This document shows, piece after piece, positions 58,782 to 59,655 of a stretch of DNA of 64,000 nucleotides. Each line of letters opens with the position of its first letter. The stretch's first letter is position 1. The stretch lies in sequence record OQ626344, one strand, 5' to 3'. The translations under genes were made by a program, and so were the position numbers. The notes below the pieces were generated by a model. It worked only from the letters and a program-made list of their open reading frames with translations. It was not told the DNA's origin and made no database searches. The stretch comes from Escherichia phage S127 BCL3.

Positions 58782-59240
58782 TCAACCCTCTTTGTACTCC
58801 ACCACGATAATATCTATATCAAAAGTGGCAAGGTTAATAATGTCCTCTACATGTTCCCACTTCAAACCGCCTATGCCGCACCCGATCTTAGGGATGTAGA
58901 ATGGTAAAATCGACCCCTCAAATACTTCATTGACTCGCTCAAATCCTTTCAGTATTGAGAAATATTCAGCATTAGGTCCTGGATAGAACTGAGTATACAG
59001 ATTTATTCCGTAGACAATACCTCTCGAAGATAAGTGCTCCCAACGGGAGAACGCGCCCAGTTTACTTAGGCAACCGTGCATAGTCATTTTATCAGCTTCC
59101 AATGCTTGAGGGAATTCACGAGCAATCTGCTTTGCTACACCCTTCCCCATTGTGTGGAAGCAGTTACAACCGTGGATCAGGTGACCAGCACCGCTCTTAA
59201 AAAGGGAGATTAAATCTCCCTCTACAGTATCAATAATCAC
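58782..59240 (-). CDS. macro-domain protein (ADP-ribose binding/processing)
   Basis: GHLIHGCNCFHTMGKGVAKQIAREFPQA and FYIPKIGCGIGGLKWEHVEDII match macro-domain signatures; GTG start at 59240 inferred, longer ORF to 59321 possible. Confidence 0.6.
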   Translation of the reverse strand: MIIDTVEGDLISLFKSGAGHLIHGCNCFHTMGKGVAKQIAREFPQALEADKMTMHGCLSKLGAFSRWEHLSSRGIVYGINLYTQFYPGPNAEYFSILKGFERVNEVFEGSILPFYIPKIGCGIGGLKWEHVEDIINLATFDIDIIVVEYKEG

Positions 59241-59655
59241 GATATTCCAGCTCCTCTTCCACAATTTCAAAAAACTCAGTCCAGCACTGTGGCATATTGG
59301 AGTTACCGAAGTGGCTTTCATAGTAAAGGTTTTTACCGCTCGGAAGATAGAAATCCGTTACCTCATAAAATCCACAATCGTCGCACTCACCTTCTTCAAA
59401 CTTGGCCTTAACCTTAATGTCGAGGAAGGTGAAAAGTTTATGGACATCTTCGGTCTCGAACTCCCAACTAATGTTGTTTTCCGCATCGGTGTAAAACTGG
59501 ATCAGTAGGCCATCATCCATTTTTCCAAAATATTCTGTGAAGTAGCTCCCTTCCCAGAAGTCTTTGTGACAAATAATATCCATGCGCTTGCCCATAATAA
59601 AGGTGTGGGCGTTTCGTGCATCGTCACGAATCAGTTTTGGCATTTCATAAATCAT
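59230..59655 (-). CDS. hypothetical acidic protein
   Basis: 141 aa; GGAG RBS. Confidence 0.5.
   Translation of the reverse strand: MIYEMPKLIRDDARNAHTFIMGKRMDIICHKDFWEGSYFTEYFGKMDDGLLIQFYTDAENNISWEFETEDVHKLFTFLDIKVKAKFEEGECDDCGFYEVTDFYLPSGKNLYYESHFGNSNMPQCWTEFFEIVEEELEYRDY

Follow-up and report, generated by a model that had tools for sequence, protein, structure and literature searches.

Gene model and surroundings of the macrodomain gene

The stretch of DNA analyzed here (the window) comprises 64,000 nucleotides from Escherichia phage S127 BCL3 (sequence record OQ626344). On its minus strand, an open reading frame running from 59321 to 58782 had been singled out in a first-pass annotation made from the letters alone. 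This frame is present and ends at 58782, and both peptide motifs quoted in that annotation as macro-domain signatures lie inside it. It holds a gene for a macrodomain protein, which is one of a long series of small genes on the same strand, downstream of the replication genes (Table 1). Over the 2.5 kb around this gene, identity reaches 99.3% with Escherichia phage B9-1 and 90 to 99% with over 70 further Vequintavirus (rV5-like) genomes, which on sequence grounds identifies the window as part of an rV5-like Vequintavirus infecting E. coli. Locally, the gene diverges between phages that are otherwise 90 to 95% identical.

Table 1. Features at and around the macrodomain gene, with positions in the window
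Feature	Position	Strand	Basis or remark
Macrodomain gene, 152 aa plus stop	58782..59240	minus	Open reading frame, Pfam Macro, PHROG 335, comparison of start codons
Start codon GTG of the macrodomain gene	59240	minus	
Stop codon TGA of the macrodomain gene	58784-58782	minus	
Shine-Dalgarno-like GAGGAG	59251..59256	minus	10 nt 5' of GTG 59240; read from the sequence
Asn26 codon	59163..59165	minus	Conserved macrodomain asparagine; equivalent to SCO6735 Asn27 and PhiKZ AdfM Asn23
Gln84 codon	58989..58991	minus	Aligns with the catalytic Lys of DarG (K80) and TARG1 (K84); equivalent to SCO6735 Gln85
Codons of G120-C-G122-I-G124-G125, putative diphosphate-binding glycine loop	58866..58883	minus	Conservation and profile alignments
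Upstream gene, 141 aa, function unassigned (phrog_8157)	59230..59655	minus	Its stop overlaps the start of the macrodomain gene by 11 nt
Sigma-70-like promoter candidate, TTTACA-17-TATAAT	59775..59803	minus	11 of 12 consensus positions; upstream of the 141-aa gene; consensus scan
Near-consensus sigma-70-like site	58785-58757	minus	Overlaps the stop codon of the macrodomain gene; consensus scan
Strong terminator	60478-60457		Predicted

Where does translation of this gene begin? The first-pass annotation had left the choice open between GTG at 59240 and ATG at 59321. Comparison with relatives points to the GTG as the true start of a 152-aa protein, because the codon matching ATG 59321 encodes Thr in phages Bas54 and rV5_ev147, because the Krischvirus kvi homolog opens with an ATG that aligns exactly with 59240 and is preceded, five codons away, by two stop codons, and because T4 Tk.4 and metagenomic homologs, most of them 150 to 155 aa long, can be aligned from residue 1 of the 152-aa model. 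The Shine-Dalgarno-like motif and the 459-nt gene model used in the rV5_ev147 and Bas54 records favor the same codon. The alternative protein of 179 aa starting at ATG 59321 was therefore rejected, its start codon being unconserved in Bas54 and rV5_ev147, the frame being closed by stops in kvi, and no ribosome-binding site resembling GAGGAG being seen before this ATG on inspection of the sequence. In B9-1, the closest relative, the gene is annotated as a truncated 122-aa version beginning at an internal Met, which lacks the first strands and Asn26 and is very probably wrong; the start codon proposed here corrects it.

Compared with its Bas54 ortholog, the gene has a Ka/Ks of 0.09, with synonymous sites near saturation. 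Thus, purifying selection acts on the macrodomain gene, which is functional.

The 141-aa gene that overlaps its start was considered as a possible functional partner. This idea was rejected, because homologs of the 141-aa gene occur in only 176 phage records, versus 2811 for the macrodomain gene, and because T4 and kvi have vs in its place. As for expression, a consensus scan returned 18 sigma-70-like sites, versus 10.4 ± 3.2 expected, and 16 of them lie on the minus strand. The site ahead of the 141-aa gene is probably the promoter of a transcript that spans both this gene and the macrodomain gene. As a pattern match, it fits early transcription of this two-gene unit by the host polymerase.

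Fold and family of the encoded protein

The first-pass annotation had proposed a macro domain from the two motifs and had named a profile search as the way to check it. In that search, the protein scored 32 bits against Pfam PF01661 (Macro), versus a gathering cut-off of 22 (E 1.3e-7), along profile positions 1 to 118 of 118, and it matched PHROG 335 (labeled "phosphatase") with an E of 8.8e-61. These data confirm, far beyond chance, that the protein is a macrodomain. The AlphaFold2 model of the 152-aa protein (pLDDT 97, pTM 0.91) gave Foldseek probabilities of 1.00 to TARG1, DarG, and Poa1p at TM scores of 0.7 to 0.85, which identifies the three-layer alpha/beta macro fold. The best match was human TARG1/OARD1 (4J5R; TM 0.78/0.85), and Poa1p, DarG from two species, BT1257, the DarTG complex 7OMU, and SCO6735 were also recovered.

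Which class of macrodomain is this? When the single sequence was searched against solved structures, the DarG macrodomain of M. tuberculosis came out on top, followed by Poa1p, BT1257, SCO6735, and TARG1. A profile built from 81 homologs had its best matches in BT1257 of Bacteroides (2FG1; 3.2e-18) and SCO6735 of Streptomyces coelicolor (5E3B; 4.5e-18), and then in M. tuberculosis DarG (2.4e-17), TARG1 (1.6e-16), Poa1p (2e-15), and T. aquaticus (Taq) DarG (1.7e-14). DarG was also the only NCBIfam and PADLOC model matched, by its macrodomain part alone (E 1.1e-12 and 3.2e-14). On the basis of these sequence, profile, and fold rankings, we assign the predicted protein to the ALC1-like class (TARG1/DarG/SCO6735) and not to the MacroD class. 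A MacroD-type O-acetyl-ADP-ribose deacetylase, of the kind represented by MacroD1/2, YmdB, and viral Mac1, was rejected because the coronavirus Mac1 (MacroD-like) domains reached only ~1.5e-3 with the homolog profile, versus 1e-18 for ALC1-like structures; in Foldseek, they stood below the 28th rank.

The recurrence of Poa1p in these searches raises the question of whether the protein could be an ADP-ribose-1''-phosphate phosphatase engaged in metabolic or RNA-repair clean-up, which would also account for the "phosphatase" label that the family carries in T4, GenBank, and PHROG. Poa1p structures are among the best matches (Foldseek E 3e-9, in addition to the profile value above), and two Poa1p residues selected for mutagenesis, His23 and Ser30, have His23 and Thr30 as their counterparts in the phage protein. 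The label, however, is motif-based and does not come from an assay, the 2'-phosphotransferase (Tpt1) that makes the substrate was not seen in annotated relatives, and the phenotype of the T4 homolog, described below, is specific to defense. We therefore give this reading scarcely any weight.

The family is large. At E ≤ 1e-3, it comprises 4684 cluster representatives, and homologs occur in 2811 phage records with hosts ranging from Escherichia to Vibrio, Pseudomonas, and Rhodococcus. In relatives of the phage studied here, the gene is already annotated, under the labels "macro domain protein" (B9-1), "phosphatase," "O-acetyl-ADP-ribose deacetylase," and "Tk.4" (phage V5).

Active-site residues and kinship to Tk.4/AdfM

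Absence of the ADP-ribose-contact residues had been named at the outset as what would speak against a macrodomain. These residues and the catalytic positions are all present, namely, D9, N26, the G32-x-G34 loop (G32-K-G34), Q84, and the G120-x-G122-x-G-G loop, and D9, N26, and both glycine loops are conserved. In the alignment of 81 homologs, N26, G34, A36, N80, Q84, P117, and G120 are invariant, and conservation reaches 90% or more at H23, G24, C27, M31, G32, Y82, T83, G122, and G125. In a further 138 representatives of 50%-identity clusters, G120 is present throughout, and Q84 and N26 are each retained in 137.

The residue at position 84 sets this protein apart from several of its closest structural matches. 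In profile alignments (5E3B, 2FG1, 5M3I, and 4J5R), Q84 coincides with Gln85 of SCO6735 and with the corresponding Gln of BT1257, and the phage motif N80-L-Y-T-Q84 aligns with N-M-I-G-Q85 of SCO6735. In DarG and TARG1, the catalytic Lys occupies this position. G122 corresponds to Gly128 of SCO6735, for which the effect of a G128E substitution has been described (PMC9411070). In TARG1, the catalytic dyad is Lys84/Asp125, versus Gln84/Gly124 in the phage protein. Together with Asn26 and the glycine loops, Gln84 points to a mechanism of the SCO6735 type rather than the Lys-dependent mechanism of DarG and TARG1. SCO6735 removes the thymidine-linked ADP-ribose made by DarT from DNA, rescues cells from DarT, and is inactive as a Q85A variant (PMC9411070). 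It also inhibits DarT through binding (PMC9411070). TARG1 likewise removes DarT-made ADP-ribose from DNA (PMC9411070).

SCO6735 and BT1257 resemble the phage protein in being orphan macrodomains without a DarT partner and in carrying an Asn-x3-Gln motif in which Gln replaces the catalytic Lys. They differ from it in sequence, with an identity of only ~22 to 24%, and in having a longer, lysine-bearing mobile loop after the Gln (+6 residues in BT1257 and +5 in SCO6735) that is missing in the phage family. This loop is a hallmark of their subclass and has been proposed to help SCO6735 grip DNA (PMC9411070).

Could the protein act without catalysis, by binding and neutralizing DarT2 or by soaking up free ADP-ribose? 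Such a direct interaction has been proposed for AdfB of phage ICP1, and SCO6735, DarG, and TARG1 retain their inhibition of DarT in vitro when catalysis is abolished (PMC9411070). However, the catalytic positions of the phage family are all essentially invariant across hundreds of diverged homologs, which argues that catalysis is what has been selected, and we consider a role in binding alone hardly credible.

Within phages, the sequence places the protein in the Tk.4/AdfM family. It is 41% identical to T4 Tk.4 (AdfM) over its full length (153 columns, E 4e-43). Both are stand-alone phage macrodomains of ~150 aa that match the same PHROG 335, and they share the NLYTQ motif, whose Gln occupies the catalytic position, as well as the HGCNCFHTMG and IGxGIG loops. 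The tk.4 gene of the RB49-like Krischvirus kvi is closer still in sequence, at 70% identity, and is found in the canonical vs-tk.4-tk locus. The genomic setting differs, since T4 has this same vs-tk.4-tk order, whereas here the 141-aa gene lies upstream and the surroundings are a Vequintavirus block of small genes. These alignments show the T4-type AdfM family to be Gln-type (SCO6735-like) and not Lys-type (DarG-like), a statement that we did not find in the literature examined. The distinction matters for work on the catalytic mechanism, for which the inactive controls would be Q84A and N26A and not a Lys mutant.

The anti-DarTG2 role of the family has been published. In a HIDEN-SEQ screen of T4 on a DarTG2 host, depletion was significant for one gene only, tk.4, and a clean knockout of tk.4 rendered T4 sensitive to DarTG2; the gene was named adfM, for anti-DarT factor Macrodomain (bioRxiv 10.1101/2025.11.20.689424). 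This evidence is genetic and comes from a preprint (bioRxiv 10.1101/2025.11.20.689424). In addition, T2 and T4 resist DarTG2 independently of AdfA/AdfN, and T5 is strongly restricted by it (PMC11825919). Biochemical data exist for gp104 of PhiKZ, also an AdfM, which strips DarT2-made ADP-ribose from DNA in vitro in an Asn23-dependent manner, the N23A substitution lowering its activity (Cell Rep 2026, PMC13309987). Like the protein studied here, PhiKZ gp104 is a phage-encoded orphan macrodomain with the conserved asparagine (Asn23, the counterpart of Asn26). It is nonetheless only distantly related (23% identity; hhalign probability 97.8%) and is Lys-type (FPTKDNW), like DarG. A further difference is that the PhiKZ protein is imported into the phage nucleus, and to our knowledge no such nucleus is known in Vequintaviruses.

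The DarG2 antitoxins (T. aquaticus 5M31/5M3E, M. tuberculosis 5M3I, and T. africanus 7OMU) share with the phage protein the fold and the ADP-ribose-binding loops and presumably also the substrate. In contrast, the phage protein has no C-terminal DarT-binding domain, being 152 aa long versus ~330 to 340, and has Gln84 where they have the catalytic Lys (K80 in Taq DarG; the lysine of PTK in 5M3I). A DarG2 antitoxin proper was rejected, as the score against NCBIfam NF048014 was 48 bits versus an equivalog cut-off of 250 and covered only profile positions 3 to 143 of 338. The PADLOC DarG match covers positions 4 to 141 of 329 and likewise scores far under the full-length threshold. Searches of the neighboring genes with Pfam, PHROG, and PADLOC detected neither a DarT nor another ADP-ribosyltransferase, the two flanking genes matched no Pfam or PADLOC model at all, and no darT gene is adjacent.

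A putative countermeasure against DarTG2

What would such a protein do for the phage? We estimate, with a probability of roughly 0.6, that it is an orphan, antitoxin-like DNA ADP-ribosylglycohydrolase of the Tk.4/AdfM family that counters DarT2. When a DarTG2 host is infected, the DarT2 toxin would ADP-ribosylate thymidines in the single-stranded phage DNA and thereby block phage replication. The macrodomain, probably made early from the host-type promoter, would serve as an orphan antitoxin by binding the ADP-ribose and hydrolyzing the thymidine-ribose bond, so that replicable DNA is restored. Binding to DarT2 itself, with inhibition of the toxin, may be a second mode of action. We infer, on good grounds, the substrate, DarT2-modified DNA, and the counter-defense role in this phage by analogy to the characterized homologs, and the analogy has to be read with the caveats that identity to T4 Tk.4 is only 41% and that the loop proposed to help SCO6735 grip DNA is missing in the phage family.

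The suggestion in the first-pass annotation that the protein might reverse host immunity based on ADP-ribosylation agrees with what has been found for T4 Tk.4/AdfM and PhiKZ AdfM against DarTG2. By the same analogy, the relevant host system would be one that modifies DNA, through DarT2 acting on thymidine, and not one that modifies proteins. A literature search on DarTG2 and Vequintavirinae returned only the NADAR anti-DarTG1 factor of Bas60 to Bas62 and nothing on the macrodomain gene. Reversal of DarT2 modification is more likely than any of the alternatives, namely, a substrate that is broader or different, a phosphatase role like that of Poa1p, and inhibition purely by binding.

Among these alternatives, a different substrate carries the most weight. 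TARG1 and Poa1p are active on small ADP-ribose derivatives. ADP-ribosylated proteins are substrates of SCO6735 and TARG1 as well (PMC9411070), so fold and residues do not by themselves fix the substrate. The protein might thus be an ADP-ribosylhydrolase for Glu/Asp-linked ADP-ribose on proteins, for ADP-ribosylated RNA, or for an immune signal derived from ADP-ribose, and might counter a signaling defense or an ADP-ribosyltransferase toxin distinct from DarT2, perhaps while also countering DarT2. That hydrolysis of protein ADP-ribosylation extends to the Gln-type SCO6735 would fit this, and the size and diversity of the family are compatible with a broader range of targets. On the other hand, sensitivity to DarTG2 is the sole known phenotype of the family, tk.4 having been the one significant hit of its screen, and DarG was the only defense-library model matched. 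We regard a different substrate as unlikely. A still more far-reaching proposal would make the Gln-type Tk.4 family broad-range hydrolases, acting on proteins, RNA, and immune signals as well and not specific for DarT2, which in Vequintaviruses would form a writer/eraser pair with the zinc-less Sir2 described below; on this view, an arms race against several systems of the host would account for the way in which the gene diverges locally. We consider this very unlikely.

Does the Sir2-like gene of the phage belong to the same pathway? The first-pass annotation had combined the two genes into an NAD/ADP-ribose axis, in which the macrodomain would consume O-acetyl-ADP-ribose, a product of Sir2, or reverse ADP-ribosylation made by Sir2. 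A Sir2 gene is indeed encoded in the window, at 7712-8473 on the plus strand (Pfam SIR2, 1.1e-26). TARG1/OARD1, one of the closest folds, was deposited as "O-acetyl-ADP-ribose deacetylase 1," and both genes are also found together in some other large myoviruses, such as Vibrio phage ValKK3. However, the two genes lie 51 kb apart, on opposite strands and in different gene blocks, Sir2 adjoining genes for an RNA ligase and a DNA ligase, and they are separated by ~33 kb in ValKK3 too. Sir2 homologs occur in 1022 phage records versus 2811 for the macrodomain, so that at least 1789 of the 2811 macrodomain-carrying records (at least 64%) are without one. The role demonstrated for T4 tk.4 has no Sir2 component, and no Sir2 is annotated near the tk.4 loci of T4 and Krischvirus kvi, between vs and tk. 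The phage Sir2 itself is missing the zinc-binding cysteines of deacylating sirtuins. A dedicated Sir2-macrodomain axis was rejected on the basis of distance, strand, and phyletic distribution, and we judge a joint pathway to be highly improbable.

Other genes related to NAD or ADP-ribose were sought among the 10 largest unannotated open reading frames of the window. No NADAR, Nudix, or ADP-ribosyltransferase domain was found among them, the only matches being an NT5C nucleotidase and a sub-threshold NEMP. A literature search on the function of phage-encoded Sir2 in Vequintavirus or T5 yielded nothing relevant.

The proposed role in countering DarT2 provides a testable function for the ortholog of the gene in phage Bas54, bas54_0092, which is 79% identical and still listed as "hypothetical protein" in the BASEL annotation. 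In a transposon library of Bas54, insertions were recovered at all 31 TA sites of bas54_0092, which makes the gene fully dispensable on E. coli K-12. The strain description of the paper reporting this library does not list a darTG system. Dispensability on such a host fits an accessory counter-defense gene.

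Divergence and possible exchange of the macrodomain gene

When the window was compared with the Vequintavirus relative Bas54, we observed a local dip in similarity at the macrodomain gene: nucleotide identity was 69-82% within window 58794-59243 versus 88-95% on either flank. The Ka/Ks of the gene in this comparison was 0.09. Across the genus, the protein alleles fell into two groups, one at ∼90-99% identity and the other at ∼60-80%, and the closest relative outside Vequintavirus was Tk.4 of a Krischvirus, at 70%. Taken together, the divergence dip, the two allele groups, and the similarity to the Krischvirus protein suggest that the macrodomain gene has been laterally exchanged between unrelated myoviruses.

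In the record of Escherichia phage B9-1, the nearest relative of S127 BCL3 (L001 6783-7151, corresponding to window 58782-59150), the macrodomain gene is annotated as 122 aa from an internal Met. This model lacks the N-terminal strands and the conserved Asn26, and is probably a start-codon misannotation.

Searching window 58000-60500 against the phage collection matched 16 "Campylobacter phage" records (e.g., MG065658 and MG065655) that are ∼92-97% identical to S127 BCL3, an Escherichia coli Vequintavirus. Their stated host is Campylobacter jejuni, and these labels look doubtful.

Promoter-like sites and neighboring genes

Three sigma-70 consensus sites each precede one of a series of small genes, and 16 of the 18 promoter-like sites within window 57000-62500 lie on the minus strand. 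Such an arrangement would fit a region transcribed early as many short units.

Features in the window surrounding the macrodomain gene and elsewhere
Feature	Window position	Strand	Detail
Sigma-70 promoter consensus site	58304-58331	-	12/12, near-perfect match
Sigma-70 promoter consensus site	58757-58785	-	11/12, near-perfect match
Sigma-70 promoter consensus site	59775-59803	-	11/12, near-perfect match
Small protein, two genes downstream of macrodomain gene	58336-58587	-	Pfam "Phage zinc binding domain" PF23903, 1.5e-22
Large ORF, Gln/Lys-rich low-complexity stretch	60494-61867	-	Ortholog of bas54_0087
Sir2 gene	7712-8473	+	GAGxS motif and catalytic His present
ORF matching NT5C, the 5'(3')-deoxyribonucleotidase family	19009-19602	+	Pfam, 26.5 bits vs cut-off 24.8

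Pfam returned no match for the large ORF, whose Bas54 ortholog was placed in the essential class by the transposon-library screen HIDEN-SEQ (8 of 57 TA sites hit). In Bas54, an insertion carrying a putative homing endonuclease gene, bas54_0088 (L006 3015-3638), separates the 457-aa ORF from the gene that follows; this insertion is missing from the S127 BCL3 window (equivalent site at about 60441-60550).

Sir2 and nucleotide metabolism

The phage Sir2 was most similar to SIRT5/CobB-type sirtuins. No cysteines were found in the segment corresponding to the sirtuin CxxC...CxxC zinc module, and none of the PADLOC defense-sirtuin models matched the protein. In the NHEP1 record, the Sir2 gene is annotated with a shortened N terminus, as the macrodomain gene is in B9-1. 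The ORF matching NT5C, labeled hypothetical in NHEP1, sits inside the nucleotide-metabolism block.
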